The notes: a model not told the origin generated them from the letters alone. Positions 2,991-55,735 are shown, numbered from the stretch's first letter. The stretch: DNA of 64,000 nucleotides from Promethearchaeota archaeon (GCA_048938105.1 JBHLMN010000012.1:141158-205157), one strand, 5' to 3'. Program-made: numbers and translations.

Positions 2991-3632
2991 TCATATCAAA
3001 GAGAATTGAATCACTACAAAGAGCATGATACTAAATGTAATTACTGAAATCACTGTGTCGAATTTTCCTGTCTTTAGAAATGGGATAAATAATGGAGTTT
3101 TGCTTTTATAACTAGTATAATCAGCGCCAAATTTCTTCAATAGGTACTGATCTTCTATAAGTGCAAGAATAATATAAGCCAGTAGTTGTAAATACCATAG
3201 TATTATTGTTTCTTCCGCTGACAGCCAACTCATACCAAAAAAGAAAGTAATATAAAAATAACTCCACCCTGTCAAGCCAATTGTCAAAAGTAGAAGACCA
3301 GTATACTGGGGATGTCTTATAAATCGATAAGGGCCAGAGGTGACTAATCCCCTTCTCTTTTTTACGCCGAGATAAACAATTGAATAAATTATCAATACAA
3401 CGCTTATCATAATCAAAATTTTCCCAAAGAATACCTCATTAAAATTGAGAAGGCTGGCATAGCCTTCAATGATACTGCTAGAAAGATTGGGAACCAAGGC
3501 ACCCAATAACAGAATTACAGGAGCAGCCATGAGTGGTATCCATACCCAGATTCCTGGAAGTTGCTGAACTAAAAGAAATAAATATCCAGCCGTGCCAAAA
3601 ACAATAGCTTGAGCTCTCTCTAGTTTTTTCAT
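2991..3632 (-). CDS. Isoprenylcysteine carboxyl methyltransferase/PEMT-family membrane methyltransferase
   Basis: LVTSGPYRFIRHPQY motif and E-x-x-L...FG..Y..Y tail. Confidence 0.85.
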   Translation of the reverse strand: MKKLERAQAIVFGTAGYLFLLVQQLPGIWVWIPLMAAPVILLLGALVPNLSSSIIEGYASLLNFNEVFFGKILIMISVVLIIYSIVYLGVKKRRGLVTSGPYRFIRHPQYTGLLLLTIGLTGWSYFYITFFFGMSWLSAEETIILWYLQLLAYIILALIEDQYLLKKFGADYTSYKSKTPLFIPFLKTGKFDTVISVITFSIMLFVVIQFSLI

Positions 3633-3956
3633 TGAACATCATCTCTATCTTATGCAAATTTTCTAGTCTAACCTCATTTCCTACGTTTAAAACCATAAAA
3701 ACTACCTCTTATAAGCCTATAGTTTTCTGCAAGTTGGGAGATAAAAGAGATGAATTAGTACACTTGTCCTAATGGATAGAACAAAGCATTTCACATTGTG
3801 GTTCCTCTGTTCGACTTTTGATACATTTTCATTACATGTATGTTTACGGAATGAAATAAGATCTAACTAAGACATTTGTAATAGAATCTAGTTTTTATTA
3901 CCTAACAGCAATGTTTTTCAGGAGATCTTTACTAGATTTTCTCTTGAGGTAGAAAA

Positions 3957-4541
3957 TTGGATAAAATGCTCTTAGAAATTCCATCAATGATAGAGACCAA
4001 ACAATTAATCATCAGAAAGTACAAAAAAGGTGATGGGATGCCACTTCTTGAATTATTTGAAAGAAACGATAATCGTGAGCATCTAAAAGATCATGTGTAT
4101 GAAGCATCCACTATAATGACCCAAGAAGAGGCAGAAATTAGAGTTAGGCGTTTTATTGCCTCTTGGGTCGCACGAAAGAGATTTGTTTTGGGTGTATGGT
4201 TAAAAGCTTCGAACCTATATATTGGCCAAATCTGGATCGAACCCAAAAAATGGGAAGTTCCCTCATTCGAGCTGGGATGGTTTTTAGACCGATCTTATCA
4301 GGGACAAGGATTAGCAACAGAAGCAGCGAGAAGAGCAATTGAATTTCTTTTTAATGATTTGAAAGCTCATAAAATCATCATTTTAACTCGTGATGACAAT
4401 GTGAGAAGCTATAAACTAGCTGAAAGATGTGGATTTACCAAAGAAGGGTATCTTAAGGATCATGGTATTAAAAATGGTAAAAGATATGGGTTATTTTGCT
4501 ACAGGTTGTTAAAACCCGACTATAAAATCAAAAATGACTGA
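3957..4541 (+). CDS. GNAT acetyltransferase, RimJ/RimL family
   Basis: ELGWFLDRSYQGQGLATEA, N..S..LAERCGF..EG. Confidence 0.9.
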   Translation: MDKMLLEIPSMIETKQLIIRKYKKGDGMPLLELFERNDNREHLKDHVYEASTIMTQEEAEIRVRRFIASWVARKRFVLGVWLKASNLYIGQIWIEPKKWEVPSFELGWFLDRSYQGQGLATEAARRAIEFLFNDLKAHKIIILTRDDNVRSYKLAERCGFTKEGYLKDHGIKNGKRYGLFCYRLLKPDYKIKND

Positions 4542-4604
4542 TTATGGTTTTTCTGCAGTATAAGAGTTAGTATTTAGATTTCAATTCCTTATTCAATCAT
4601 CTTT

Positions 4605-5546
4605 TTAGCTTAATATTTCAATTAATTTGACCAAATCCTCTTTATTGATGGCAACAACATCTGCTTCAGGAAATATATTGCGGTTGTTTTCTGAAATTCC
4701 CTGTCCTCCGATTGCAATACGAATTTGGTTTTTGAAAACATTATGTAAATACTCTAAATTTCGTTTAAGAGTACCAAGATATAACGGAAGGGTAATGGAG
4801 ATAAATATCCAATCAGGTAATTCAGGAAGATCTTTGATATATTTGATTAAGGATTGGATGGGTAAAGCTCGCCCCAGATTAATAATCTTGTAATTTAAAT
4901 CCCGAAGAATATATTCTAAGGCAAATAAACTGAGAACATGTCTTTCACCTTCTACAGGTACTAAAATGATAATTCCTTTTTCCTCTATATTTTCATTTAC
5001 TGGTATTCTTGCAACGATTAGCTCTTCAACGCGATTAGAAATAATGTGTTCTTCCGCAGTTGAAAGATTCGCTTGAGCCCATTGTACACCGACCTCATGC
5101 ATTAGTGGTGTGATAAAATCAACAATAAAGGGTGTACTATTAGGAAACATTGATTCTATGTTTACTGAGAACTCCTCAACATCATAATTTGATGATTTCA
5201 GATATCTGATCATTTCTTGTATGGAGGCTAATTTTAAAACAGAGGGTTTTTCTATTCTTCCTTTCTCCTCAGGCTTCTTCTTTTCTTTTAATATCTCATT
5301 CTCATGTATATATAGTTCTTTGATTAGATCATCAGTTAAATATACAACAGTATACCGCCCCCGTTTAAGTGGGCGTCGTTCGATTTCGATATAACCTTGT
5401 AAATTTAGTTCTTTTATGGCATTAGAAATTGTTGAACGTTTAAGATCTAAATTGGATGCAAGTTCAGAAACAGGGACTTCCCTTCCGCGATTTTGCCTTA
5501 AGTATCGAAAAATACGATCTCTGGCTGGTAATTGGACATTTTCCAT
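4605..5546 (-). CDS. CarH/LitR-like cobalamin-dependent photoreceptor regulator with N-terminal winged HTH
   Basis: wHTH (VSELASNLDLKRSTISNAIKEL); W-x9-EH motif (W-AQANLSTAE-EH); B12-binding GERH..., ISIT, IGGQG; adjacent to crt genes. Confidence 0.85.
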   Translation of the reverse strand: MENVQLPARDRIFRYLRQNRGREVPVSELASNLDLKRSTISNAIKELNLQGYIEIERRPLKRGRYTVVYLTDDLIKELYIHENEILKEKKKPEEKGRIEKPSVLKLASIQEMIRYLKSSNYDVEEFSVNIESMFPNSTPFIVDFITPLMHEVGVQWAQANLSTAEEHIISNRVEELIVARIPVNENIEEKGIIILVPVEGERHVLSLFALEYILRDLNYKIINLGRALPIQSLIKYIKDLPELPDWIFISITLPLYLGTLKRNLEYLHNVFKNQIRIAIGGQGISENNRNIFPEADVVAINKEDLVKLIEILS

Positions 5547-5615
5547 AAGGCATTGTTACCTTCTTATTGATATTCTTATGATTTCTTCATGACTTACTCT
5601 TATTTTATGAACCAG

Positions 5616-6560
5616 CTAAAGTTTACGAAGGTACTCTAAACGTACTTTAGTTGCCAAAATAATCTTTCTTAGTTTAGAAACAACTGCCCGTTGATTTAAT
5701 ATTTGATAATCAATTCTTTTTATCTCATTTAGAATTTCCCCATAGACTCTTGAGGCCACTTTTACAGTATAAGCTCCTGCAGGTGGTAATTCCTCAATAC
5801 CAAGATCAGCTATCTTATAAAGAGCTTTCGCTCGCTCTGATTCGTAACGAATGAGTGATTTGAGGTTCTCATTCACTTTATCACCCCTTAGATCCTCAAT
5901 CGTAACCTGATAATCATTCCGAGTTTCTTCTGGTAGATATATTCGCCCCTTGAGGAAATCCTCTTTGATATCTCTTAATATATTGGTTAATTGCATTGCT
6001 CTACCTAGATCTGCAGCTCGTGCTAGAGTTCGTTTTTCTGGATTTTTGATGAAGATGTGAGTCATCATTAAACCAACAGTACTTGCAACCCGATACATGT
6101 ATAAGTCAAGTTCTTCTTCTGAATAGTACTCGGTTTTTATAAGATCCATTCTCACACCTTCTATAAGCTCATGCATGTAATTAACTGGAATTTGATGTTT
6201 ACGTAACGTATCTCCAAAGGCATGAAGGATAGGATTTGTAGAGCTATATCCATTGGCCAATTTTGTTATAGTACTTTTCAATCGATCAAGTTCAAAATTA
6301 ATCTTATCAATCGTAATCCCCTTAGGGGCTTCATCAACTATATCATCACTTAAACGACATATAGCATAGAGAGCAGCAACGCTTTTACGCTGATCTTCAG
6401 GTAAAAATCGACTAGCGAAATAGAATGACTTGCTATGCTCTATCATCCAGTCTAGACAGATTTGATAGCTTTCTTCAAGTGTTTCATCCATCAAACTATG
6501 TTTAGGTGTCGTACTTTTGGGAAGAAGTTCCCAATCAATTGTTTTGTGAGTTGAATACAT
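5616..6560 (-). CDS. crtB: Phytoene synthase
   Basis: SKSFYFAS, DDIVD, YRVASTVG, LGRAMQLTNILRDIKED..GRIYLP. Confidence 0.92.
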   Translation of the reverse strand: MYSTHKTIDWELLPKSTTPKHSLMDETLEESYQICLDWMIEHSKSFYFASRFLPEDQRKSVAALYAICRLSDDIVDEAPKGITIDKINFELDRLKSTITKLANGYSSTNPILHAFGDTLRKHQIPVNYMHELIEGVRMDLIKTEYYSEEELDLYMYRVASTVGLMMTHIFIKNPEKRTLARAADLGRAMQLTNILRDIKEDFLKGRIYLPEETRNDYQVTIEDLRGDKVNENLKSLIRYESERAKALYKIADLGIEELPPAGAYTVKVASRVYGEILNEIKRIDYQILNQRAVVSKLRKIILATKVRLEYLRKL

Positions 6561-6695
6561 TTTCTAATTCACTTATTAATATTTCATGAATTAGTTCAAC
6601 TTCATGAATAAACATTTAAATATTTTTCGAATGTAGGTAATCAATCAAAAAAGTGTCATTTGTCAAGTAGACATTACTTTTTTGGATAAATAAAA

Positions 6696-8279
6696 GTGAG
6701 AAAAATGAGTAATGGACATAATAAACGTAATATAGCCTTTGATAATAAAAACCCTGAAACGTTTCTCGAATCAGTGGTAATTATAGGCTCTGGGATTGGT
6801 GGACTGGCGGCGGGAATACGCCTTCAGACAACAGGAAAATTTAATGTTACTATTATAGAAAAACTAGACCAAGTTGGTGGTCGGGCCAGAGTCTTTAAAG
6901 ATCAAGGGTTTACTTTTGATGGAGGTCCTACGGTAATAACTGTACCTGACATTTTTAAGGATTTATTTACTTTACCTGGTCGAAAAATGGAGGATTATGT
7001 CGAATTAATACCAGTGGAGCCGTTTTATCGAATCCATTTTAACGATGGGACATTTTTTGATTATTCTACTCCGGAAAAAAATATACCTCAAATTGAAAAA
7101 GTAAATCCTGAAGATGTAGAAGGATATAAACGCATGCTTAAAGCAGTTCGACCGATCTACGAGAAGGGGTTCAAAGAATTATCATTTAAACCTTTTAACA
7201 AGTTTACTTCAATGCTTAAAGTAGCTCCCTCCCTCATCAAGTTACAATCATACCGTTCAAATTATAAATTTGTCTCTAAATATATAAAAAATGAGAATCT
7301 CCGAATGGTATTTAGTTTTCACCCTTTACTTATTGGGGGGAATCCTTTCTCGGTTCCATCAATTTATAGTCTTATTCAATACCTGGAAAAAGAATTTGGA
7401 GTTTGGTTTGTGCGTGGTGGTACAAATGCTTTAGTTCAGGCGTTAGCAAACTTATTTGAGGAGCTTGGGGGTAAAATCATTTTGAATAGTGAGGTTAAAA
7501 AAATTGAAGTTAAAGATAATCAAGTAGAGGGCGTTTTAACTGTTTCGAATGATTTTTATCCAAGTAAAATCGTAATAAGTAATGCTGACCCCGCTTTTAC
7601 ATACACAAAAATGATTGATGCAGAGTGGCGCAGGAAAAACAGTGATAAGCGTTATAAAAAAGCGAAATATTCTATGGGATTAGTTGTAATTTATTTTGGA
7701 ACGAAAAGACAATATCCAAATATGAAACATCACACTATTATTTTGGGTCCCCGGTATAAAGGACTAATAGAAGATATTTTCAAGAAAAAGATTTTAGCAG
7801 AAGATTTTTCGAGCTATTTACATCTCCCCACTCGGACTGATCCAAGTTTAGCTCCTGAAGGACATGAAGCCTTTTATATCCTGATTCCCGTCCCTCATCA
7901 AGATTCTGGTATTAATTGGGAAGAAATGGCTGAACCATTTAAACAACGAATCTTTGATTTTCTGAATGAAAATTATCTCCCTGAACTAAAAGAGAACTTA
8001 GTGACAGAGCGAATTTTTACTCCTCTAGATTTTGAACGAGACTATAATAGCTTTAAAGGATCTGGTTTTTCTGTTGAACCAATTTTTACTCAATCAGCGT
8101 GGTTCCGTCCACATAACAAATCTGAAGATATTGATGGTCTTTATTTAGTGGGTGCTGGAACCCATCCAGGAGCAGGATTGCCTGGAGTTGTCTCCAGTGC
8201 AAAAGTAACCACAGATTTGATCATCAATGGGAAAAATGGATTTTCAAAAAAACCCTCTGGAATAAGTAATGCTAATTAG
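6696..8279 (+). CDS. crtI: Phytoene desaturase
   Basis: GSGIGG FAD motif, GGRA..F..GFTFDGGPTVIT, C-terminal VGAGTHPGAGLPGV; possible ATG start at 6705. Confidence 0.92.
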   Translation: MRKMSNGHNKRNIAFDNKNPETFLESVVIIGSGIGGLAAGIRLQTTGKFNVTIIEKLDQVGGRARVFKDQGFTFDGGPTVITVPDIFKDLFTLPGRKMEDYVELIPVEPFYRIHFNDGTFFDYSTPEKNIPQIEKVNPEDVEGYKRMLKAVRPIYEKGFKELSFKPFNKFTSMLKVAPSLIKLQSYRSNYKFVSKYIKNENLRMVFSFHPLLIGGNPFSVPSIYSLIQYLEKEFGVWFVRGGTNALVQALANLFEELGGKIILNSEVKKIEVKDNQVEGVLTVSNDFYPSKIVISNADPAFTYTKMIDAEWRRKNSDKRYKKAKYSMGLVVIYFGTKRQYPNMKHHTIILGPRYKGLIEDIFKKKILAEDFSSYLHLPTRTDPSLAPEGHEAFYILIPVPHQDSGINWEEMAEPFKQRIFDFLNENYLPELKENLVTERIFTPLDFERDYNSFKGSGFSVEPIFTQSAWFRPHNKSEDIDGLYLVGAGTHPGAGLPGVVSSAKVTTDLIINGKNGFSKKPSGISNAN

Positions 8280-9103
8280 TGGAAGAAATTGTAATGTTAA
8301 CATATTTCATCTTCCTCCTTTTCTTTATTGTTATACCTTTGATGGTAATCAGTTTTTTTTATTATAAGAAATATCGTGGAGGGGAAGAATATCAAAAAAC
8401 GATGATAAAAAAAATCTTAATTGTGTTAGCGATATTAATAATTGTAGCTATTACTTATACTACTCCATGGGATAATTTTCTCGTCGAAAATGGCATTTGG
8501 TATTATGAGACATCGAAAGTTATGGGTATTTTAATTGGTTTTGTACCCATTGAAGAATATGGCTTTTTCGTATTGCAGACTCTCTTTATTGGATTGCTAT
8601 TCGGATGGATTCTGCTTCATAGAAAGAAAATCAGTCATAATCAGAATAATTTTAGAGTTAATTTACGCCTGATTTCAGCGATTGGGCTACTTATTGTTTG
8701 GATTGTAGGATTTCTTGCATTTATTAACAGAATAGAAACTTTAACTTATCTGAATTTAATCCTTTTATGGGGAATACCTCCAATAATGATTCAACTGATC
8801 TATGGCGCTGATATTCTCTGGTTGTACAATCGAGACCTTATCTCAGTCATCTCTCTCTCAACTATTTACTTAGCTATTGCAGATACTATTGCGATTGCAG
8901 ATGGAATCTGGACAATTAGTATAAATACATCAACAGGGATTCTTTTGGCTGGAGTTTTACCTATTGAAGAGTTTGTCTTTTTCTTGGTCACTAATATATT
9001 AATTACTTTTGGATTAACCTTAATGATTGATTCTAGGAGTATTGATAGATTTCATCAATACTTTTCTAGATTAAAAGAACACAAGTGGAGAAATAAGTTA
9101 TGA
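8279..9103 (+). CDS. crtY: Membrane lycopene cyclase, two fused CrtYc/CrtYd-type domains
   Basis: Two repeats of D..I..GIW...G..PIEE..FF (PIEEYGFF, PIEEFVFF); overlaps the crtI stop codon. Confidence 0.85.
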   Translation: MEEIVMLTYFIFLLFFIVIPLMVISFFYYKKYRGGEEYQKTMIKKILIVLAILIIVAITYTTPWDNFLVENGIWYYETSKVMGILIGFVPIEEYGFFVLQTLFIGLLFGWILLHRKKISHNQNNFRVNLRLISAIGLLIVWIVGFLAFINRIETLTYLNLILLWGIPPIMIQLIYGADILWLYNRDLISVISLSTIYLAIADTIAIADGIWTISINTSTGILLAGVLPIEEFVFFLVTNILITFGLTLMIDSRSIDRFHQYFSRLKEHKWRNKL

Positions 9104-9220
9104 CCAGTAGAATTTTTGTACAGGAATTGTATACATGCTTCAAAAATTTAGAAAACTGCAATATGAAGATATATTGGGAATACCTCCCTTTCTTTAACTC
9201 ACACAATTTGAGGTAATTTC

Positions 9221-9673
9221 ATGTTAAATAACGTAATAGAATATCTTAATGAGTCTGTAATACCTTTGCGGCTTTCTGGTACCACTAAATCAGGCTGGCC
9301 ATTTGTAATGAGCCTTTGGTATGTTTATTTAAATGAAAAAATTTACTTAGCAACTATAAAATCAGCTAAAGTCGTTGATTATCTTTCTAATAACCCCAAA
9401 TGTGCTTTTGAAATTGCCAGTGATACTCCACCTTATTGTGGGATTCGAGGACAAGCAATGGCAAAAATTATTGAATCTAAGGGGGATGAAATTCTAAAAA
9501 TCCTTCTAAATCGTTATCTAGGAGGAGAAAATAGTCCTTTAGCCCGAAGACTGTTGAATCAACGTATACCAGAGGTTGCGATTGAGCTTACTCCTGTTAA
9601 AGTGTATCAATGGGATTATAGTAAGCGAATGATTGACTCGATTGAATTTTCTTCAGTTAAAAAGTGTCCATAA
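9221..9673 (+). CDS. Pyridoxamine 5'-phosphate oxidase-like (split-barrel flavin-binding) protein
   Basis: GWPFVMSLWY, K..YL..NPKCAF, RGQA, WDY. Confidence 0.75.
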   Translation: MLNNVIEYLNESVIPLRLSGTTKSGWPFVMSLWYVYLNEKIYLATIKSAKVVDYLSNNPKCAFEIASDTPPYCGIRGQAMAKIIESKGDEILKILLNRYLGGENSPLARRLLNQRIPEVAIELTPVKVYQWDYSKRMIDSIEFSSVKKCP

Positions 9674-9710
9674 ATAAGAACGATAAAAAAACCAGTAAAA
9701 AGGTGATATT

Positions 9711-10130
9711 ATGTCAGATATCAAATATTCTGCTGGAGTATGCAATATCGGTGACGCTGAAATAAAACAAAGACGTCGATTAGGATATATAGGCATTGGT
9801 CTTACTGTGATAGCAATTATTGTATATTTAGGATTGATTTATTCTATAAAATTAGATCCATTCTTTGGAGTGATTATTTTCATACCTGCTGAAATGTCAG
9901 CTATTGGGTTAATTCAAGCTAGGAACAAATTTTGCGCTGCTTATGGATTGATTCACCAACAGAACGTTTCCTCAAGCTTAGGCTTAACTGTGAAAATAGG
10001 CAATAAAAATTCCCAGAGAAAGGATAGGAACAAAGCTCTTAAAATTATTTTTCAATCCCTAGTAATTGCGATTATCATTACTGTTTTTACAGTTATTGGA
10101 GGGATTTTGATAGCTCAAAGTATTATTTAG
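9711..10130 (+). CDS. Small membrane protein with two Cys motifs (GVCNIG, KFCAAYG)
   Basis: Three hydrophobic segments; AGGTGA upstream; function unknown. Confidence 0.6.
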   Translation: MSDIKYSAGVCNIGDAEIKQRRRLGYIGIGLTVIAIIVYLGLIYSIKLDPFFGVIIFIPAEMSAIGLIQARNKFCAAYGLIHQQNVSSSLGLTVKIGNKNSQRKDRNKALKIIFQSLVIAIIITVFTVIGGILIAQSII

Positions 10131-10219
10131 GTTTGAATATAGGTTGAAAAAAAGCATAAGAGATAAATATGAATCAAATCAATATACTCAATCTTAGGGA
10201 GAGGATTTTTCCTACTCCA

Positions 10220-10957
10220 TTAAAAAATTCGTCCTAGTGACGCGTCTAAGATTTTTCCAGTCATTAGAGGAGTAGTTGCAGCAAATTCTATCATTTCATT
10301 CAAATCCTTAGGTAATAATGGGTAATTAAGAAGCTGTTTTGATATTAATTTCGATGATAGAACCTCAATTGTTGTACCATTATCCATAGATTTCTTTTCC
10401 AATTCTCTATTATGTCGATCCGTAAAAACATATGTAGGAGAAACTCCGTTAATTCGAATTTTGGGAGCCAAAACTCTAGCCATTGTACGAATTAAATAGA
10501 CTAATCCAGCTTTCGCAACTCCATAAGGCATTTTATCCAATGAAGGTTCATAAGCAGCAGAACTAACGATATGTACTATAGCTCCGCCTTCTATCATAAG
10601 TTCAGCTGCCATTCTTGTTAATAAGAAAGCAGATGTTAGATTCACATTTATTACACGATTGAAAAATGAAGCATCCACTTCTAATGGATTTTTTGAAGCC
10701 AAGGATCCCCCTATATTATTTATCAGAATGTCTATTGATCCAATTTTAGTCTGTACCCATTTCTTTACCTTTCTAATTCCTTCCTCGGTTGTGCAATCAG
10801 CTGCAATATTATTAATTCCTGGAAAACGATCATTTATCATATTTAGACTGGATATGAGAACCTCATTATTCTGATTAGAAAGTTTTCTCATAATTGCCTC
10901 TCCAATCCCTCCAACAGCAACACCAGTAACTAGAATTTTCTTATTTTCGATGATCAT
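10220..10957 (-). CDS. Short-chain dehydrogenase/reductase
   Basis: TG..VGGIG, NNIG, SS, YGVAK (YxxxK), IRING..P. Confidence 0.85.
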   Translation of the reverse strand: MIIENKKILVTGVAVGGIGEAIMRKLSNQNNEVLISSLNMINDRFPGINNIAADCTTEEGIRKVKKWVQTKIGSIDILINNIGGSLASKNPLEVDASFFNRVINVNLTSAFLLTRMAAELMIEGGAIVHIVSSAAYEPSLDKMPYGVAKAGLVYLIRTMARVLAPKIRINGVSPTYVFTDRHNRELEKKSMDNGTTIEVLSSKLISKQLLNYPLLPKDLNEMIEFAATTPLMTGKILDASLGRIF

Positions 10958-11002
10958 GATTAATTTCCTCAGTTATGTTGTTAATGGTTTAATTTATTAC
11001 AT

Positions 11003-11491
11003 CTAGTCATCTATTTTCAGAGTTTGAGTTTTAAGTAATTTATAATTTTTAGGAAATCCCCAATCTTCAATCTTATTGTAACTTGTTTTTTTTGATCGAA
11101 AATGTACCCATATTGTTGTACTATCAAGAAGTGGATTAGCATGGTAATGCTTTTGATCACCATATCGAAAAGCTTCTAGTACTAGGGGTAATTCCTGACG
11201 AAAAATTCTATCACGAAACTTTAAAGGGCCAATTCCCCCACTTACTTGACAATAGACATGGAGTGAATATACATTTTCGGTTTTCAACCATTCAGCTAAC
11301 ACTTCATCCCGCATTATCCGTGTTTGCCATCCTTTTAGTTGTTTTTTGTTAAACTCATGGGCAATGGTGAGAAATAAATCTCCTGTCCGATCTGAATGGG
11401 TTAATGTATAGCAACGAGGTACTAGAGGAGAATCAATGGTTGTTGGGGGTATAAATGTAACATTTAGTTTATTTGGGTTTAAGCGATTCAA
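11003..11491 (-). CDS. Staygreen-family protein (Mg-dechelatase homolog)
   Basis: PRCYTLTHSDRTGDLFLTI, RDEVLAEW, LHVYC, FRQELPLVLEAFRYGD, WG tail. Confidence 0.88.
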   Translation of the reverse strand: MNRLNPNKLNVTFIPPTTIDSPLVPRCYTLTHSDRTGDLFLTIAHEFNKKQLKGWQTRIMRDEVLAEWLKTENVYSLHVYCQVSGGIGPLKFRDRIFRQELPLVLEAFRYGDQKHYHANPLLDSTTIWVHFRSKKTSYNKIEDWGFPKNYKLLKTQTLKIDD

Positions 11492-11517
11492 GGTAGAAAT
11501 CCTTCTATTTGAAAGAA

Positions 11518-13020
11518 CTAAGTTGTAGATAAATAATAGGGCTTAGGAGTAGAGCTTATTTTAGTATATGTAAGACTATCTCCAGGAATATCCCTACAAA
11601 TTTCCTCTAACAGCTTTTTTGACAGCATGTCGAAAAATGGTTGGATCATAAACCAATAGGCTATCCCAATAAGCCCTTTTGGGACTATTCGAAAAATCTG
11701 ATGAAGTTCAATTTTTTTGTGATTAATACGCCTTAAACGATATCTTAGGATGGTATAACCAGGTAAGATGAAATCTGTATGTAATGTTAATTCTTTCTTT
11801 GGAATTTTATTCTGAATTGAAAGAGGAGTCTTTTTCATCTCTCCCTTGTCCTTAAAACCTTTGAAAAAACCGTTTAGAAAAGCACCAAATTTCCATAAGT
11901 ATAAATTGATCTGAAAATTTCTATATTTCTCAATCTGAAGTAATTTGTTCCACAAATTCTCAGGATTACTAGTTAAAATAGCCTTACGATGATCTTGGAA
12001 GACAAATCCTCCAGACCAGGATGGATCCCCTGGAATGTGCCATTCAACGGGTAAATCATAATAGCTAGAATAACTTCCGTACCTAAGATACTGTTGGGGG
12101 TTTAATGCTAATCGAATTGCTTGTTTATGGTTTAGTAACTTCTGTGGAATCAATTCTCGTATCCTAAAATCATGACAAACAACCTCATTCTTCATTCCAT
12201 CTATTAATGGACGAGCTAAAGATGATTGAATGCCTGTAATCAATCTTATCCAATAGGAGCTTAGGCTAGGAGTGAAGAAAGGGATAGGGAGAATTAAACG
12301 CTTTGGTAGTGCCATAATTTCCACATAACTCTCCATAAACTGTTTATAAGTGATAATATCTGAACCACCAATATCAAAGGTCTCACCGATTGTTTCTGGT
12401 ACATCTAAACAGTCAGTTAGATATTTCAGAACATTTCGAATAGCTATTGGTTGATTTCTTGTTCTAAGCCACTTGGGTGTAATCATAATTGGCAATCTAT
12501 TGACTAGATACCTCATCATCTCAAAAGCTGCGCTTCCACTCCCAATAATAATTGCTGCACGTAACGTTGTAACTGGTACTGAACATGAATTCAGTATTCT
12601 GGAAACTTCGATTCGAGACTGTAGATGCTTACTTAATTTTTCTTTTTCGTCCCCTAATCCCCCAAGATAAATAATTCTTTCAATTGCTGCCTTTTCAGCT
12701 GCAATTATTGTGTTTTGGGCTGCAATTCTATCAGATCTAATAAAATCTTTTATTTTTCCTTCCATAGAATGGATTAAATAGTAAACCGAGGAGACTTCTT
12801 CCATTGCGTCTTCTAAGGTTTTAATATCGAAAACATTAAGATTTACCGTTTTCAAATTCCTATGATGACTCCATAATCTCATATTTAGCTTGTCTTTTGA
12901 CCTAAACCCCACTCGTACAATATATCCTTTCTTTAAGAGTTTTGGTACAAGTCTGGAACCTATGTAACCTGTGGCCCCAAGTACAAGAACTTCTTTTTGT
13001 TTCAAGGGAAATCTACTCAT
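11518..13020 (-). CDS. YbjT-like atypical SDR/NAD(P)-binding protein with C-terminal DUF2867-like domain
   Basis: GATGYIG, YYLIHSM, HLQSR.EV, IIGSGS..FEM, TRNQPIA, PKGLIG.AYW. Confidence 0.8.
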   Translation of the reverse strand: MSRFPLKQKEVLVLGATGYIGSRLVPKLLKKGYIVRVGFRSKDKLNMRLWSHHRNLKTVNLNVFDIKTLEDAMEEVSSVYYLIHSMEGKIKDFIRSDRIAAQNTIIAAEKAAIERIIYLGGLGDEKEKLSKHLQSRIEVSRILNSCSVPVTTLRAAIIIGSGSAAFEMMRYLVNRLPIMITPKWLRTRNQPIAIRNVLKYLTDCLDVPETIGETFDIGGSDIITYKQFMESYVEIMALPKRLILPIPFFTPSLSSYWIRLITGIQSSLARPLIDGMKNEVVCHDFRIRELIPQKLLNHKQAIRLALNPQQYLRYGSYSSYYDLPVEWHIPGDPSWSGGFVFQDHRKAILTSNPENLWNKLLQIEKYRNFQINLYLWKFGAFLNGFFKGFKDKGEMKKTPLSIQNKIPKKELTLHTDFILPGYTILRYRLRRINHKKIELHQIFRIVPKGLIGIAYWFMIQPFFDMLSKKLLEEICRDIPGDSLTYTKISSTPKPYYLSTT

Positions 13021-13032
13021 TCTAAGAGGACA

Positions 13033-13803
13033 TCAATAATCTTGACGAGCTTTCCAGAAATCACCATAAAAGAAAAATCCAATCAGTTGAGAAAATACGA
13101 ATATTATTGATATAACTATTCCTAAATACTGTAATATAAGAATTTGATTACTATGGAAGATATACAGAGGGATAAAGTTCAATAAGAACCAAATCCACGA
13201 AAGAATTGGAGCAGATATGAACATAAGAGATCTTTTCCATTTTGAAACAGATAAGAAGGAACTCAAATCATATTTTATTCCAAAAATAGGAAGTTTCGTT
13301 ATAGGTGTCCAAGCTAGCAAGTTTGATTTACGAAATGTGGATTTGAAAATAAAATAATTTCTAAAGTTTAATCCTAAAAGAAAACCAAATATGCAATGGA
13401 TTACGGTATGAGAGAGCATAAAGTTTACAAAACTGATTAGAAAGAACAAAATAACACTAAACCAAAAATCTACAGAAAAATAAAAGGCTAAAAAATAAAG
13501 AATTTCTGAGATGAGAACACCAACTGAGAATAGTAAAGTTCCGACTTTAATTGAAAATTTTGGAACGTTCCAACTATCGAAGAAGAATTCATCAATTCTC
13601 CCTAAAATATCTATTTCTTCCTCTGTTATTTTTACTTTTCGTGCATATTTTACAGCAGTTTGATATTTTCTCCAATGACTCTTCCGATTTAATGTTCCTG
13701 TTTCATATGAATCCTCTAAATCCTTGATATTCCTACTAAAATTAGTGTTATCCATTTGAGAACCTTCCCTAGAACTGTAGTTCTTATTAGTTATACTTAA
13801 CAT
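13033..13803 (-). CDS. Uncharacterized membrane protein with HxxxH motif (M50/zincin-like layout)
   Basis: Four or more hydrophobic segments; SHTVIH; later SAP and YGDF motifs; start may be at the second Met. Confidence 0.55.
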   Translation of the reverse strand: MLSITNKNYSSREGSQMDNTNFSRNIKDLEDSYETGTLNRKSHWRKYQTAVKYARKVKITEEEIDILGRIDEFFFDSWNVPKFSIKVGTLLFSVGVLISEILYFLAFYFSVDFWFSVILFFLISFVNFMLSHTVIHCIFGFLLGLNFRNYFIFKSTFRKSNLLAWTPITKLPIFGIKYDLSSFLSVSKWKRSLMFISAPILSWIWFLLNFIPLYIFHSNQILILQYLGIVISIIFVFSQLIGFFFYGDFWKARQDY

Positions 13804-13862
13804 TATAATTCTAGTGATCGAGGTTTGAAAATAAAAAGAGGGGAAGGATCATAATGACCCAA

Positions 13863-14675
13863 TTAAGCAAATATTAACCCCATAAATACAATCCAAGCTA
13901 ATGCTGATTTTGCAAAGAGGCTTAATAATTGATAACCTCGTTCTCCATATAGATAATCTTTCCATGGGCCTATTTTCTTATACTGAAGAAACATATTCAA
14001 GGCAAAGCTGTTAAAGAAGACGAAATAAACTACTAAGGCAATATAGACAAAAGTAGGAACTTCTCGTCCAACTGTGTTAATACTCAAGAATGTATCAAGG
14101 ATGACGATCCAGGGCATTATTCCAGCTATCCATCCTAGGATATAAGGAGCCCAGCTTGTTTTTTCAGTATATTGGTTATAAGTCTCCATTAACAACCCAA
14201 ACATGTTCATTAATCCATTAAGCACGAATATCAGAGCAAGAATCCAAAATTCTAGTATTCCAAAAGCTAAAGCAATGAATATGATCATCACTGAACTGGA
14301 AAAAGCATACTCATACCAACGTACTGGATTCATTTCTTTCTTTAAATTGGTAACATATTTGTTATATAATGGAAAAGCAATCAGTAAATGAGCAATAGCT
14401 GACATTAGAAGAAAACTAGCAAGCAGGATACCTGCAATGTTTTCAAAAGTGAAAAAAACTTCGGGGATAGGCTCAAGAACTGGACGAGTACCAGTTAATT
14501 CTTTTATTCCTAAATACGACCTATAAATGTCGATTTTGAAGTTTTTTATTTCATCAATTACTAAACTCAGAGCAAATATAACTGTTGCTTGCACTAAGTG
14601 CAAGATACCCATGGCTATATTGAATTTCCGGAGATAGGAAAATGATATTTTTGACTTTTCAATGTTAGTTGACAT
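13863..14675 (-). CDS. Heliorhodopsin
   Basis: N-terminal LRKFN..MGILHLVQA, AIAH, NPVRWYEYAFSSSVM (counterion Glu), GERGYQLLSLFAKSALAW (retinal-binding Lys, SxxxK). Confidence 0.95.
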   Translation of the reverse strand: MSTNIEKSKISFSYLRKFNIAMGILHLVQATVIFALSLVIDEIKNFKIDIYRSYLGIKELTGTRPVLEPIPEVFFTFENIAGILLASFLLMSAIAHLLIAFPLYNKYVTNLKKEMNPVRWYEYAFSSSVMIIFIALAFGILEFWILALIFVLNGLMNMFGLLMETYNQYTEKTSWAPYILGWIAGIMPWIVILDTFLSINTVGREVPTFVYIALVVYFVFFNSFALNMFLQYKKIGPWKDYLYGERGYQLLSLFAKSALAWIVFMGLIFA

Positions 14676-14894
14676 TAAGCAACCTCCTATGGATTTAGAC
14701 AGAAGAGTCCTTCTTTATATATTCATTATGATAATTAAAACGTAAATCACCAATAAATCTAGATCTAGAATTAATGACTTGAATCAGGATGAAGTTCTAT
14801 TACTGAAAAAATAAAGAATCTATTATAATGTGAACCTAAAACTTGCTGATTGATGAACTAGTACTTCTAAAATCACAAAGAATGGTGAAGGCTG

Positions 14895-15671
14895 ATGTCT
14901 CTTACAAAACAAAAACAATTTTTGATTTATGGTAACATCTTGAGCTTTTTATTAACTATCGTGATGAATTCTTTAGCCAACATCCTTCCTTTGAATGGAA
15001 AAACAACTGCAGAACTCAGTGACTCTTTCCCTAACTTATTTGTCCCCGCTGGGTATGTTTTTAGTATCTGGGGATTGATCTACATTTTATTAGCAATTTT
15101 CACGGTTTCCCAAGCCCTTCCCAAGTATAGAGAGGAGGATGTTATTGAAAAAATCTCCTATTTCTTTATTATAAGCAATCTGGCTAATTCATCATGGATT
15201 GTATTTTGGCACTTTGAAATAATAATCGCATCCTTATTGGTTATGTTGATACTCCTTGTATCTTTAATACTAATCTATACCCGATTAGAAATTGGAAAGA
15301 AGCCCGTGAGTGAAAAAATTAAGATCACTTCTCATATCCCATTTAGTGTTTACCTGGGATGGATTACTGTTGCAACTGTTGCAAATGTTACAGCTTTACT
15401 TGTATCAATAAACTGGGATGGTTTTGGCATAAGTGAAGTCATCTGGACTGCAGTTGTAATAAGTGTTGCAACAATAATTGCACTAGTTATCGTATTCACC
15501 CGGAAAGACTATGCCTACGTTCTTGTCCCCGTCTGGGCTTTTATAGGAATAGCAGTAAAGCAATTAAATACTCAAAACGATGTTGTTATAATTTCTGTTA
15601 TAGCAGCAGTTATTTTAGTCATAACATTGCTTGTTAGACTTTCATTGGATTTAGTTCAGAATCGAAAATGA
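14895..15671 (+). CDS. TspO/MBR-like tryptophan-rich sensory membrane protein
   Basis: FVPAGYVFSIWGLIY, N..WIVFW, PFSVYLGWITVATVAN. Confidence 0.75.
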   Translation: MSLTKQKQFLIYGNILSFLLTIVMNSLANILPLNGKTTAELSDSFPNLFVPAGYVFSIWGLIYILLAIFTVSQALPKYREEDVIEKISYFFIISNLANSSWIVFWHFEIIIASLLVMLILLVSLILIYTRLEIGKKPVSEKIKITSHIPFSVYLGWITVATVANVTALLVSINWDGFGISEVIWTAVVISVATIIALVIVFTRKDYAYVLVPVWAFIGIAVKQLNTQNDVVIISVIAAVILVITLLVRLSLDLVQNRK

Positions 15672-16552
15672 ATGATAATAATTTTAGATCACTAATTACT
15701 TCACTCATAATAATATGCATTGCTGCATGTCTTGCACTCATTGGTAGCCACAGGGGTATAACTGTTTTTGGTGGAATACCAGTATTTGCACTTGGAGTAG
15801 CTATTGCCTTTATAATTCAATGGATTGCGTTTATACCTGCTTATATCAAAAGAACAGAGAAATTTTTCGATTTGACTGGCTCTTTGACTTACAGTATTGT
15901 GATTATTTTTTCAGTTGTTTTGAGTTCTGAAATCAATATACGATCTATTTTACTGATGTTTTTGGTCTTGATCTGGGCGATTCGCCTTGGTATGTTCTTG
16001 TTTAGGAGAATACTGAAAGAGGGTGAGGATAAACGCTTCAAGGAAATCAAAGAATCAGGTTCGCGTTTTCTATTAACTTGGACTCTTCAAGGTTTGTGGG
16101 TTAGCTTTACATTAGCAGCTGCATTGGCTGCGATCACAGTAAAACAGAGGGTAGAATTTGGCGTCTTTGGTTTAATTGGTCTTCTGGTTTGGATCATAGG
16201 CTTTGGATTTGAAGCTGTTGCAGACTATCAGAAGAGTAAATTCAGATCTATTCCTGAAAACAAAGGAAAATTTATTACTACTGGATTATGGTCGATATCA
16301 CGACATCCCAATTACTTTGGAGAGATCCTCCTATGGATCGGTATTGCAATCATTGCACTTCCAACACTTCAAGGTTGGAGATGGCTAACACTAATTTCTC
16401 CTATTTTTGTCACATTATTATTGACCAAGGTTAGTGGTATTCCATTACTTGAGAAACATGCAGATGAAAAGTGGGGTGGTCAGGAGGAATATGAGCAATA
16501 CAAAAGTAAGACTCCAGTATTAATCCCAAGGCCATTCTTCAAATCAAATTAA
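15668..16552 (+). CDS. DUF1295 / steroid 5-alpha-reductase-like membrane protein
   Basis: EDKRF, EAVADYQK, GLWSISRHPNYFGE, SGIPLLE; ATGA overlap with the upstream gene. Confidence 0.88.
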   Translation: MNDNNFRSLITSLIIICIAACLALIGSHRGITVFGGIPVFALGVAIAFIIQWIAFIPAYIKRTEKFFDLTGSLTYSIVIIFSVVLSSEINIRSILLMFLVLIWAIRLGMFLFRRILKEGEDKRFKEIKESGSRFLLTWTLQGLWVSFTLAAALAAITVKQRVEFGVFGLIGLLVWIIGFGFEAVADYQKSKFRSIPENKGKFITTGLWSISRHPNYFGEILLWIGIAIIALPTLQGWRWLTLISPIFVTLLLTKVSGIPLLEKHADEKWGGQEEYEQYKSKTPVLIPRPFFKSN

Positions 16553-18186: not shown

Positions 18187-18957
18187 ATGTATATCGAAAA
18201 AGATGAAAATAAAACTCTAGGGGAGGAAATTAGAAGTGAAAACTCCATCAATTTAGTAGTGACAACTTTTCTATTAGGTGTGAGCATTTATGTAGTGGCC
18301 CAGCTTATCGGAATATTTCTTACTACTGAATCATTTGGTCCAATTATCGAAGGAGGAAATGTGTCAAAACTGTTATTAACTCAGTCAATGTTTCTGTTTC
18401 TCTCTCTTGTCACTATATTTTTTCTGACTAAAGGAAAATTAACTCACTATGGATTAAATAAACCTATCGGAGCAGTAAAATGGGGATATATTATTGGATT
18501 AGGATTATTGATTGGTTCAATTGCTACCATCCTCATTATTGTAACAGGAGCAAATGGAAATCCTGCTTTAACAGGTCTAGGTATTAGAGAAAAAATAGTC
18601 TTACTTTGGTTTTTAGCTAGTATAGCAGAAGAAGTTTTCGTTAGAGGTTTATTACAGGGGTATCTGAATCCTCTAGAGGGTATGAAAATTAGTATTGGTA
18701 AGCAAAATTTCTCATATCCAGTTGTTTTCAGTGCTATATTTTTTGGTACCATCCATCTACCGCTAGTATTTTTTGGGGCAGACCTTATCACAATTTGTAT
18801 TATCTTTTCAATGACAATAACTCTGGGTTTCTTTACAGCCTCTTTACGAGAGAAATATCAAAGTATATTACCTTCAATTGGCATTCATATTACAACAAAT
18901 ATTGGAGGAACAATGCTAGGTCCAATAATATATGCAATCTTGGTAGGATCAATTTAA
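18187..18957 (+). CDS. CPBP (Abi/Rce1-like) intramembrane metalloprotease
   Basis: EEVFVRG, FGTIH, IGIHITTN. Confidence 0.9.
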   Translation: MYIEKDENKTLGEEIRSENSINLVVTTFLLGVSIYVVAQLIGIFLTTESFGPIIEGGNVSKLLLTQSMFLFLSLVTIFFLTKGKLTHYGLNKPIGAVKWGYIIGLGLLIGSIATILIIVTGANGNPALTGLGIREKIVLLWFLASIAEEVFVRGLLQGYLNPLEGMKISIGKQNFSYPVVFSAIFFGTIHLPLVFFGADLITICIIFSMTITLGFFTASLREKYQSILPSIGIHITTNIGGTMLGPIIYAILVGSI

Positions 18958-19275: not shown

Positions 19276-20460
19276 ATGGAAAATCAAAATAAAGGAAGTA
19301 GTTGGTTTATTTTCTCTACACCAGCTATTCTTGCTGCGGGTTATCTTTCATTGCAATTTTTAATCGAATTCCTTGTAGCATTGCTGCTTTTTATCGTTCA
19401 ATTAACCGATGATATTGTGATAAGTAAGTTTATTGTCTTAATTATTAGTCAGATGCTTCTTACCGTGATAATTATCTTTGTGATAACCCCTTTCCTGAAA
19501 ATTAAAGATGTTGAGTTTACTACTGTTAGCTATACTAGTTTTCTAAAATTTATTGCAGTTTTTTGTCTATTCTGGGCGATTACGATACCTATTACCCTAA
19601 TTTTTTCAGTTTTTTCCACTAATTTCAGTATAGGGGAAGCAATCTATGAAAAAACATTACCACTGTCGATCGGTCATCGTGGAAATCTATTCTCAGTCAT
19701 CATGTGGTTACTAGCTGGTACTCTAAGCTTTGCCATATTTATGGAATATTTATTTCGAAGAACATTGATACCATTATTCGAAAAGCGTGGTTTATCTCCT
19801 TTTGCTGCAGTTATCACTTCAAGTATTGCTTTTGCTTTAGTTAGCATACCAAATTATCTCGGAATCCAACTAACAATTCTTACAGAATCCAACTTATTAA
19901 TTCTATATTTTAGTAGATATGGATTATTAAATTCACTTTTCTGTTCCTTAAACCTTTTTATGACAACATTTATCCTTGGAATGGCTTGTGGAATTGTATA
20001 TATCCTAACAAGAAATGTCATATTTTCAATTATGGTACATTGTCTTGGTATACTTCCCTACTACTTGATAGATTTATTTCATGATAATATTATGTTCGAT
20101 TTATTGTTAGGTATTTTAATTATTGTGATTAACATTTCAGGCCTTCTTGTTGCCTTATTCACGAGTCATACTATTTTTAAAGCTTCATCCCAGACTGACT
20201 GGATTACTATCCTTAAGAAAAAGTCGGAAGTAAACATCAATCGCGGAATAACTGGATTCTTTATTACTTTTTGGGGAATAATTATTAATATTGTGATATT
20301 CATTGGTTTACTTGCCGAACATGCTCCTATTATAGTTGCTCTATTGTTTAATATTATATTTCTTGGATTTTGCACTAAATATTTACGAGAAGATTCAATA
20401 GAGGATAAATCACCCACTGATCATAATGAAATGAAAGAATATGGTGAAATAAGTGAATAG
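19276..20460 (+). CDS. CPBP-family membrane protein with degenerate catalytic motifs
   Basis: MEYLFRR in place of EExxxR, FALVS in place of FxxxH, TRNVIFSIMVH. Confidence 0.65.
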   Translation: MENQNKGSSWFIFSTPAILAAGYLSLQFLIEFLVALLLFIVQLTDDIVISKFIVLIISQMLLTVIIIFVITPFLKIKDVEFTTVSYTSFLKFIAVFCLFWAITIPITLIFSVFSTNFSIGEAIYEKTLPLSIGHRGNLFSVIMWLLAGTLSFAIFMEYLFRRTLIPLFEKRGLSPFAAVITSSIAFALVSIPNYLGIQLTILTESNLLILYFSRYGLLNSLFCSLNLFMTTFILGMACGIVYILTRNVIFSIMVHCLGILPYYLIDLFHDNIMFDLLLGILIIVINISGLLVALFTSHTIFKASSQTDWITILKKKSEVNINRGITGFFITFWGIIINIVIFIGLLAEHAPIIVALLFNIIFLGFCTKYLREDSIEDKSPTDHNEMKEYGEISE

Positions 20461-55300: not shown

Positions 55301-55735
55301 GTAAGTGGCTGAATCTTCAATAAAACTATCTCGAATAAGGATATTTTTAACATTATCAAGGTAAATACCGTAATCGTCCCCCGACAGAGTACAAAAATAT
55401 ATATCAATATATAAATTAGTGTTCAGGATGGAAATTAATCTCCCTGATATCCCAGTTGTTATATTTTGCGCCCAAATACCAAATGGTTTTTCAGCACTAC
55501 CGTCTCGACCGTCAAAAGCCCAGCCATTAGGACCTGCCTGAGAAACTAAATCTGCATCTCCATCTACTGATATAGCCGAGTCAGCCTGTATGGAGCTAAT
55601 TGATTGTGATACAGAAAATAAATCAATTTGCTTATTCTTCGTCTGTTGAAGAAGTGTATATTGACCCCATCCCCACACTACTGATAATGTGATCAAAATA
55701 ATGACAATAACTATTTTTATTAATCGCCACTTCAT
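52397..55735 (-). CDS. Large surface protein: right-handed beta-helix (NosD-like) repeats, three FN3-like domains and a PG-type C-terminal sorting signal
   Basis: Many GI.L..S..N.I..N repeats; three P.GGE..SG...IQW.AS.D...Y..YYS..G.SW...Y.W.T repeats; Thr-rich linker; STPGW-TM-RRRSK. Confidence 0.85.
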   Translation of the reverse strand: MKWRLIKIVIVIILITLSVVWGWGQYTLLQQTKNKQIDLFSVSQSISSIQADSAISVDGDADLVSQAGPNGWAFDGRDGSAEKPFGIWAQNITTGISGRLISILNTNLYIDIYFCTLSGDDYGIYLDNVKNILIRDSFIEDSATYGIRISGGSSNINVTGNTITSTLTNRGVSVSASSHVLISGNTISSNGDGVVLSSSNHTRVEGNTIQKNRNNGIYTNFAYYNTISDNTINSSWYYQSGTYGNGMRIVNSVNTSISKNTVHGNVGSGIIVTTNTYNTTIDDNEIYNHTKNSGSSGILHWDTAYNSTITNNVLYDNNYGIQANDWHVIINNTINNSIDYGIYLNSWNTANNNTLFNNSRGIYIEDTHNSLSHNKIYNSTTYGIELYSAFDTTLVHNTIENSGSNGIRIYYTQRTTIKDNILNNNDILIDGSIYAQFAQAEVSNNLLNGNPLIFWKDLTGPLTVPSYTEQVFIFNCTNIEITGLHLSDVYSGIIIHSSNNVSIHDNTISSCTYTALDIYSTNNSRITNNIFSDTGQVICGTVMENLTISGNFFLRNSGSTNGIIDLHEINNSKISENEFYDNMRFAIAIFNGFENTLKSNIIHNQSSGSGILLQYQVNTTVYWNSISNCSEKGIQIVYGSNNSVFTNEFTNNTQYGVYIFNSNWNVVMFNNFLNNSMGNPQAYDSGSYNVFKKNYWNDELGIDADEDGYLDGKTYSLDGGANFDPLLLANHYLPTFPTILFPNGEETLSGNVTIQWTAASDPLNNLFTYNLYYSLNNGVSWIEIAKDLDVTSYLWNTLTLTNSSNYLLKITAFYQEVTYKEVRIILEDISDDFFTTENVGHYLTVPVITKPIGGDSVSGVISIQWAASTDSWNYKFPISYDLYYSNDLGTSWTSLGTLSSPGYLWNTSKVTDGLTYQIMVRAWNNEGLERTAISEVFIIQNHLLSEPIVLYPSGGEVIGGLINIQWSASIDSLGHSLNYSVYYSSDGGGSWTPIAEGLEVTNIEWDTTTVSDGENYVIKVIVTDELGFTNEDSSDSSFTILNIEPQTTTHPTTPTTTPTTPTTTPPTESSSETTIKTSTDSSTTQDGSTPGWTGYSLLVILGVITLIRRRSK

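Follow-up and report, generated by a model that had tools for sequence, protein, structure and literature searches.

A putative light-response island with a CarH-type cobalamin regulator of carotenoid genes and a heliorhodopsin-Staygreen cluster in a Hodarchaeales archaeon

The DNA analyzed here (the window) is a stretch of 64,000 nucleotides from a Promethearchaeota archaeon (G000:C63:141158-205157, i.e. GCA_048938105.1 JBHLMN010000012.1:141158-205157), taken from a genome (G000) of 5.85 Mb that is 99% complete; its GC content stays near 0.33 throughout. The subject is a gene island at window positions 4605-16552, which an earlier note had described as a light-response island of an Asgard-type genome, linking a B12 photoreceptor, carotenoid (crt) genes and a heliorhodopsin (HeR). 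All genes named in that note are present in the interval, together with an additional one absent from its list, encoding a membrane protein of 139 amino acids (aa) at 9711-10130 on the plus strand. The Asgard label also holds, as the closest relatives of the genome are Candidatus Hodarchaeota, Heimdallarchaeota and Hermodarchaeota, and the host is a Hodarchaeales archaeon.

The island consists of four co-directional gene groups. Group 1, on the minus strand, begins with the phytoene synthase gene crtB (5616-6560; SQS_PSY PF00494, 248 bits) and continues with a regulator gene (4605-5546) whose product combines a winged helix-turn-helix (wHTH) with B12-binding_2/B12-binding domains, as judged from Pfam matches (HTH_11/MarR_2 and B12-binding(_2)), motifs and fold; the gap between the two genes holds a weaker tandem operator-like site with two mismatches (5586-5611). 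Group 2, on the plus strand, comprises the phytoene desaturase gene crtI (6696-8279; TIGR02734, 604 bits) and the gene of a fused CrtYc/Yd-type lycopene cyclase, the start of which overlaps the crtI stop (8279-9103; TIGR03462, in two stretches, 111 bits). After a gap of 117 bp these are followed by genes for a PNPOx-like split-barrel protein of the flavin/F420 type (9221-9673; a weak match below cut-off, E 5e-4, with which the Atlas agrees) and for the 139-aa membrane protein (unk139), whose family is unassigned and which accompanies the PNPOx-like gene in relatives. The 135 bp between the diverging groups 1 and 2 contain the operator TTCATGAA-N10-TTCATGAA (6583-6608) and, 6 bp from it, a putative TATA-like box, TTTAAATA (6615-6622), read from the sequence. 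Group 3, on the minus strand, is headed by the HeR gene (13863-14675; PF18761, 286 bits), the first of five, and continues with TM256, a 256-aa membrane protein with no Pfam match (13033-13803), a YbjT-like NAD_binding_10/NmrA reductase with a C-terminal DUF2867, assigned by Pfam (11518-13020), a homologue of the Staygreen (SGR) Mg-dechelatase (11003-11491; PF12638, 166 bits) and a classical SDR (10220-10957; PF00106, 110 bits); the gaps are 59, 12, 26 and 45 bp, respectively. Group 4, diverging from HeR across 219 bp and lying on the plus strand, encodes a TspO/MBR-like membrane protein (14895-15671; PF03073, 27.9 bits vs. a cut-off of 24) and, with a 4-bp overlap, a steroid-5-alpha-reductase-like DUF1295 membrane reductase (15668-16552; PF06966, 237 bits).

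The crt part of the island was compared with 10 crt loci of relatives, two of whose genomes belong to another family of the class. The divergent unit of regulator-crtB and crtI-cyclase is kept in all 10 loci, and the aligned control regions share one element, TTCATGAA-N10/11-TTCATGAA, to which a further copy is added in some cases. This tandem operator is found in 11/11 crt control regions, including those of the other family, where the regulator is just 31-38% identical, and the TTTAAATA box adjoins it in most relatives. The genome has 354 exact TTCATGAA half-sites, and the crt site is the sole N10/11 tandem in which both halves are exact, with about 0.04 expected by chance as calculated from these half-sites. 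The tandem (at most two mismatches) matches 16 times in 517 kb of Hodarchaeales loci, each time inside a crt control region, and mononucleotide shuffles give 0.15 tandem matches per 64 kb. The lone 8-mer is not enriched in the window (5 observed vs. 3.8 expected), and the informative feature is therefore the tandem arrangement only. The weaker site at 5586-5611 shares its position with sites in four relatives (L025, L027, L032 and L034), and its conservation in the crtB-regulator gap suggests autoregulation. The tie between a B12-type regulator and the crt genes is thus borne out by the conserved unit and its operator; repression of crt by the regulator through the tandem operator appears very probable, and B12-type control of these genes is well supported by the sequence comparisons.

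The regulator has an N-terminal wHTH, a disordered charged linker and a CarH-type cobalamin module, made up of a bundle of four helices plus a Rossmann fold. A Wx9EH motif together with a B12 motif is the signature of adenosylcobalamin (AdoCbl) photoreceptors, among which the CarH family is described as bacterial, with MerR-type DNA binding; the Wx9EH cap sets the AdoCbl photoreceptor CarH apart from the B12-independent CarA, and MetH is without it (PMC9304148, PMC8156234). In the regulator the Wx9EH motif (WAQANLSTAEEH) is located at residue 156 and is invariant across 11 orthologues, and the elements of the B12 motif are all present, namely ERHVLS (E-x-H, with the lower-ligand His), SIT (SxT) and GG. 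Sequence matches include photocobilins, a MerR-B12 domain and CarH. An AlphaFold2 model (mean pLDDT 85) predicts the DNA-binding part as a wHTH of three helices and a beta-hairpin, and the top Foldseek matches of the model are the photocobilin 8J2W, the MerR-B12 domain 8JBS and TtCarH 5C8D, with a probability of 1.00 for these three and for 3WHP and TM values by target of 0.5-0.7. Judged by motifs, sequence matches and predicted fold, the C-terminus is a CarH-type photosensory cobalamin domain.

The N-terminus, on the other hand, matches HTH_11, MarR_2 and ArsR-type wHTH models, and profile searches of it gave no match to a MerR domain. As the DNA-binding domain is a wHTH and not MerR, we do not file the protein as a member of CarH/LitR; the description as a CarH-like regulator is apt for the cobalamin module, with its Wx9EH motif and fold, but not in the sense of strict family membership. 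The full-length wHTH-cobalamin architecture is rare, with about 14 cluster representatives aligning end to end among 1.84 billion, and other matches share the cobalamin module alone, joined to MerR, XRE, ArsR-type, HD or no recognized domain. A CobA-type adenosyltransferase is encoded in the genome, in which no PduO-type enzyme was found. The regulator plausibly works like CarH, and we infer that it is probably dependent on AdoCbl and light.

Family-level matches were obtained for all three of CrtB, CrtI and CrtYcd in one cluster. The NCBIfam CrtB/HpnD scores of CrtB are below the equivalog cut-offs, and beta-carotene, as opposed to another cyclic carotenoid, is for this reason only the presumed product. 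Beta-carotene had also been put forward as the retinal precursor for the HeR, an idea that found no backing in searches for a cleaving enzyme: the 99%-complete genome has no match to the RPE65-type oxygenase (PF03055), for which the positive control worked, and none to Blh/Brp (PF15461, TIGR03753), for which neither model gave a valid positive control. TM256 and unk139 show no Blh-like match even at E values up to 10, and no type-1 rhodopsin was found in the genome, although the control for this search was silent. The retinal might come from scavenging or from an as yet unrecognized enzyme.

The HeR appears intact. Its PF18761 match spans profile positions 1-241 of 242, it aligns with TaHeR (6IS6) at E 3e-61, and both the Schiff-base Lys (K256, in SLFAKSALAW of TM7) and the counterion Glu (E122, in RWYEY of TM3) are kept; a comparison of 25 distinct HeRs, one of them truncated before the Lys, shows this pair conserved throughout. 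A preprint proposes, by docking, a carotenoid-binding fenestration in 91% of HeRs, the site having an opposed pair of aromatic residues, a Gly and two gates that need non-bulky residues (10.1101/2025.11.27.691015). Of the putative carotenoid-site residues, Y178, G185, F221, N222 and A225 are present in the window HeR, with W182 at the position of TaHeR C168. This gate Trp is common to all HeRs of the genus and one relative of the same class, whereas the SGR-linked HeRs of Anaerolineae have Cys at the gate and the canonical site motif F-C-G-F-N-A. A carotenoid antenna was considered for the window HeR, and the bulky Trp at the gate argues against it. A search of 20 further genomes of the genus found a HeR in 13, and 11 HeR loci were fetched with their neighborhoods. 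Elsewhere, crt and photolyase genes are known to flank zinc-finger HeRs (Znf-HeRs) (Bulzu et al. 2021, PMC8612252). As a side observation, the HeR match at G205:C74:4875-5606, from the Anaerolineae class, lies in a 788-aa open frame, and fusion of HeR to another domain is possible there.

The pairing of HeR with the SGR homologue was examined across lineages. An SGR alignment scan over species-representative genomes returned 80 loci, 15 of which have a HeR within 10 kb, and in at least 10 loci, from Hodarchaeales and Chloroflexota, HeR and SGR are immediate neighbors on the same strand (gap of at most 123 bp, or overlapping calls). As raw counts, 12 of 13 SGR-bearing genomes in a Heimdallarchaeia sample have a HeR, compared with 16/40 overall, and in an Anaerolineae-class sample of 201 genomes, drawn evenly except for two picked for already having the feature, a HeR is present in 8/9 SGR-bearing genomes vs. 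32/201 (16%) overall. In six of the eight Anaerolineae genomes with both genes they are adjacent. An SGR tree (FastTree, midpoint root) places the Hodarchaeales clade as sister to Thor/Hermod sequences and far from the Chloroflexota clade, with HeR-linked SGRs in two distant clades, so that a recent transfer of the pair between Hodarchaeales and Chloroflexota does not account for the link. Residues H32, D34 and D62 of the window SGR are invariant alignment columns; D34 and D62 are essential and H32 is important in an Anaerolineae SGR that dechelates chlorophyll a in vitro (PMC8531759). The literature searched contains no mention of heliorhodopsin together with Staygreen or Mg-dechelatase, nor of a link between HeR-SGR and CarH-type regulators. 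From comparative genomics across two domains, it seems likely that HeR and SGR are functionally coupled. The genome also holds a second, degraded SGR fragment (G000:C39:223437-223589), with 64% identity over 50 aa and two in-frame TAG codons.

In Anaerolineae, the pair is found in company resembling that of the window. Locus L053 carries, on one strand and with gaps of at most 69 bp, HeR-SGR-DegV-DUF1295 and a regulator of MerR, B12-binding_2 and B12-binding domains with Wx9EH, and the gene order in L111 is crtI-crtB-cyclase-x-YbgA-HeR-SGR. In nine Chloroflexota loci a MerR-B12 regulator is encoded no more than 10 kb from SGR, and in seven (L111, at 3648-4622, and L070, L073, L078, L090, L099 and L114) the same holds for a DUF523 + DUF1722 (YbgA-type) gene, which recurs beside HeR-SGR; ybgA is co-operonic with photolyase in E. 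coli. DUF1295 is near SGR in 11/80 loci and NmrA/DUF2867 homologues in seven other loci. The idea of two receptor chemistries in one gene set is thereby strengthened, as a B12 photoreceptor with HeR, SGR and DUF1295, with or without crt, recurs in Anaerolineae, and the MerR regulator there, with its non-orthologous DNA-binding domain, gives independent support for a two-receptor light-response set.

Eight families, TspO-like, PNPOx-like, unk139, SDR, SGR, NmrA/DUF2867, TM256 and DUF1295, are neighbors of crt in certain relatives and of HeR in others. Beside crt, the PNPOx-like gene is found in G009, G010, G012 and G018, unk139 in G010 and G018, SDR in G010, and the TspO-like gene in G001, G009, G010, G012 and G016, being part of the crt operons in G001, G016 and G009. 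The closed Heimdallarchaeota genome G009 (CP070695.1) has TspO-like, TM256 and NmrA/DUF2867 genes after crtI-cyclase on the same strand, and a PNPOx-like gene and a 59-aa SGR remnant after crtB-regulator; the remnant points to a former crt-SGR linkage. It is located at 13057-13233 of locus L026 (G009:C1:1530000-1549900), where a second crtI/crtB pair follows (13433-15896). Beside HeR, on the other hand, SGR, SDR, unk139, PNPOx-like and DUF1295 genes are found in G011, G004 and G019, with subsets in G009 and G017, and the HeR neighborhood of G011 additionally has TspO-like, TM256 and NmrA/DUF2867 genes. TM256 directly follows HeR in the window genome and G011 and belongs to the crtI operon in G009; it has an HxxxH motif (SHTVIHC), the catalytic Glu of HExxH is missing, and the Atlas points to M50/DUF3267 membrane zincins, as a lead only. 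The TspO-like protein matches PF03073 positions 32-143 of 145 and, at about 258 aa, is about 100 aa longer than typical. The same client genes are thus wired, depending on the genome, either to B12/operator-controlled operons or to a HeR-headed cluster, and the window genome has both next to each other.

Taken together, the island is real and non-random, its clustering going beyond chance as the same families co-recur in other genomes of the genus and in Chloroflexota. We read it, with a probability of roughly 0.6, as an island for light response (photoprotection) in which each of two modules, module 1 (4605-10130) and module 2 (10220-16552), is headed by a photoreceptor. In the dark, the regulator would probably bind AdoCbl and sit, as a presumed oligomer, on the tandem operator beside the TATA-like box, and would also occupy the weaker site before its own gene. 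Bound in this way, it would keep crtB-regulator and crtI-cyclase, possibly with PNPOx-like and unk139, from being transcribed; at crtI it would lie on the BRE (B recognition element) side of the TATA box, and at crtB it would cover the predicted start site. Photolysis of the cofactor in light would make the oligomer dissociate and turn on beta-carotene synthesis; module 1 would thus follow CarH logic, at an archaeal promoter and by means of another DNA-binding domain. In module 2, HeR may be a membrane light sensor for the SGR homologue and its companion reductases, through a putative physical or regulatory link, and these enzymes would likely handle photosensitizing tetrapyrroles or lipids in light. 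Tetrapyrrole detoxification as the function of HeR-SGR is a tentative proposal, and the substrate of SGR a presumed one. More doubtful still is the wider notion of a sensor-effector pair, conserved in Asgard archaea and Chloroflexota, that triggers dechelation or detoxification of tetrapyrroles (chlorophyll derivatives), or other SGR chemistry, in light, with the same clients alternatively wired to a B12 photoreceptor.

Several results weigh against this reading. The regulator does not match the strict pattern D/ExHx2G/P-x41-SxT/V-x22-27-GG, having Ser at the Gly/Pro position and spacers of x43 and x27 (orthologues have G, P, A or S at that position), and its Pfam B12 scores are under their cut-offs. 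In the 11 fetched HeR loci of relatives, the 10 kb on either side of HeR are free of crt genes; closed G009 has 0.99 Mb between the crtI orthologue and HeR, and in G011, G001 and G016 these two genes do not share a contig. The earlier note had itself held that such unlinking in relatives would speak against it, and the two are unlinked in every relative examined, so that HeR-crt adjacency is specific to the window genome among these. No operator was found upstream of HeR in the window genome or 14 relatives, nor in the 517 kb of Hodarchaeales loci outside crt, and together with the unlinking this makes co-regulation of both modules in the window genome conjectural. That the B12-type regulator controls HeR directly was also considered and is unsupported, the operator being missing before every HeR examined. 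The claim of a coordinated module therefore stands in part: shared accessory genes and recurrence in Anaerolineae speak for it, HeR-crt linkage and an operator at HeR do not. The HeR-SGR pairing is lineage-restricted and one-sided, with SGR in just 8/32 HeR-bearing Anaerolineae and no HeR within 10 kb in any of about 25 Thorarchaeota and Bathyarchaeia SGR loci; the co-occurrence counts are not corrected for kinship, and no HeR-SGR fusion was found among the longer SGR-containing proteins, in what was a weak search.

One alternative explanation is that crt adjoins HeR for chromophore supply, to make the retinal precursor and/or a carotenoid antenna bound by HeR. Such an arrangement would suit the crt genes that flank HeR in both the window genome and L111, their place beside Znf-HeRs (PMC8612252), the fenestration proposed for most HeRs and the canonical site motif in Anaerolineae. 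We nevertheless consider it unlikely, since RPE65 was not found under a good control (the Blh/Brp controls being uninformative), the gate Trp is present in all HeRs of the genus, the binding proposed in the preprint is a docking result, and crt and HeR are unlinked in relatives. It is also conceivable, with a still lower likelihood, that the regulator senses cobalamin or redox state in the manner of CarA or AerR, or corrinoid status, repressing isoprenoid pigment genes accordingly, and that the island is not controlled by light. Proteins other than photoreceptors also have B12 modules, and some of these, such as MetH and corrinoid proteins, appear in the sequence and fold matches of the regulator, whose lower-ligand motif is slightly non-canonical; but none of the 11 orthologues departs from the Wx9EH cap, which MetH is without (PMC9304148, PMC8156234), photoreceptors rank first among the structural matches, and the genes under control are the crt set, the classic case of light induction. 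We regard this as very improbable.

A recent rearrangement might also have brought two unrelated pigment and membrane blocks together by coincidence. Rearrangement clearly occurred, as the ArsR(112 aa)-unk280-CAAX genes, which here adjoin the island on its right, flank the crt cluster in the closest relative, G011 (HeR 94% identical), which has the two blocks on different contigs. Coincidence nonetheless seems quite unlikely, being a little more credible than a cobalamin or redox sensor and less so than chromophore supply, because the eight accessory families are beside crt in some genomes and HeR in others, an SGR remnant is present in the G009 crt operon, and Chloroflexota show the combination again, with another type of regulator. 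Moreover, the gene order of the window genome is the overlapping union of those in G018/G010/G012 (crt-PNPOx-unk139) and in G011/G004/G019 (PNPOx-unk139...SDR...SGR-HeR), and hence gives no sign of misassembly. The light-response island of two modules remains the reading we prefer.

The island may extend leftwards. A GNAT acetyltransferase gene (3957-4541, plus strand) lies 64 bp from the regulator gene, and loci of Thorarchaeota, Hermodarchaeota and Bathyarchaeia (L052, L057, L067, L082 and L101) contain homologues of it (56-67% identical) upstream of SGR, at a distance of 1-4 kb. The flanks further contain genes for an ICMT/PEMT-like membrane methyltransferase (2991-3632, minus strand) and two Rce1-like CAAX proteases (18187-18957 and 19276-20460, both plus strand), that is, families of the prenyl-protein-processing type in an Asgard genome. 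Farther away, a 1112-aa protein (52397-55735, minus strand) with repeated right-handed beta-helix/NosD domains is probably a surface protein.

The same-strand HeR-SGR arrangement in two domains, together with the published assay for Anaerolineae SGR, offers a directly testable hypothesis on the function of heliorhodopsin. If it is true, HeR gains its first enzyme partner conserved across domains, and the SGR homologues of non-phototrophs gain a first physiological context, namely a light-response gene set. A CarH-type photosensory module on an archaeal wHTH, with a predicted operator and a TATA-type promoter, would represent an archaeal version of B12 photoregulation and suggests light-regulated pigment synthesis in Asgard archaea of sunlit sediments; the regulator could perhaps also be used as a compact light switch of archaeal or eukaryote-like type.

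Partners of HeR proposed from gene neighborhoods are glutamine synthetase and photolyase. The window shares with these systems an intact HeR that heads an operon with soluble enzymes, a light or oxidative-stress context and, as for Znf-HeRs, crt genes nearby; it differs in that the conserved neighbor is SGR and in having neither a Znf/MORN fusion nor two-component genes. The crt cluster of Rhodobacter holds TspO (CrtK), and non-phototrophs have light- or singlet-oxygen-induced regulons. Common to these and the window are a TspO-family gene in or beside crt and membrane reductases and SDRs near photoprotective genes, whereas the TspO-like protein here is archaeal, about 258 aa long and a weak Pfam match, and there is no sigma/anti-sigma system. 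The Anaerolineae protein AbSGR-h is a bacterial Staygreen homologue with Mg-dechelatase activity in vitro (PMC8531759, PMC11006732). The window SGR is 52-58% identical to Chloroflexota SGR homologues, has H32, D34 and D62 in the same numbering and likewise belongs to a non-photosynthetic host, but it sits in a photoreceptor context (HeR; CarH in Anaerolineae), and the word "rhodopsin" has no occurrences in PMC8531759.

The closest parallel is CarH/LitR of Thermus, Myxococcus and Bacillus megaterium, with which the regulator shares the cobalamin module, the Wx9EH cap, a slightly deviating form of the His-on B12 motif, the fold and the crtB/crtI targets, as well as the location of its gene inside the crt cluster, probable autoregulation and a multi-copy operator overlapping the promoter. 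The differences concern the DNA side: an archaeal-type wHTH (HTH_11/MarR/ArsR-like) takes the place of MerR, and the operator is a tandem 8-bp palindrome with a period of 18-19 bp instead of 11-bp direct repeats, at a promoter of the TATA/BRE type. Crt genes beside Znf-HeRs were known before; the probable CarH-like control of crt through a non-MerR regulator departs from the known systems.

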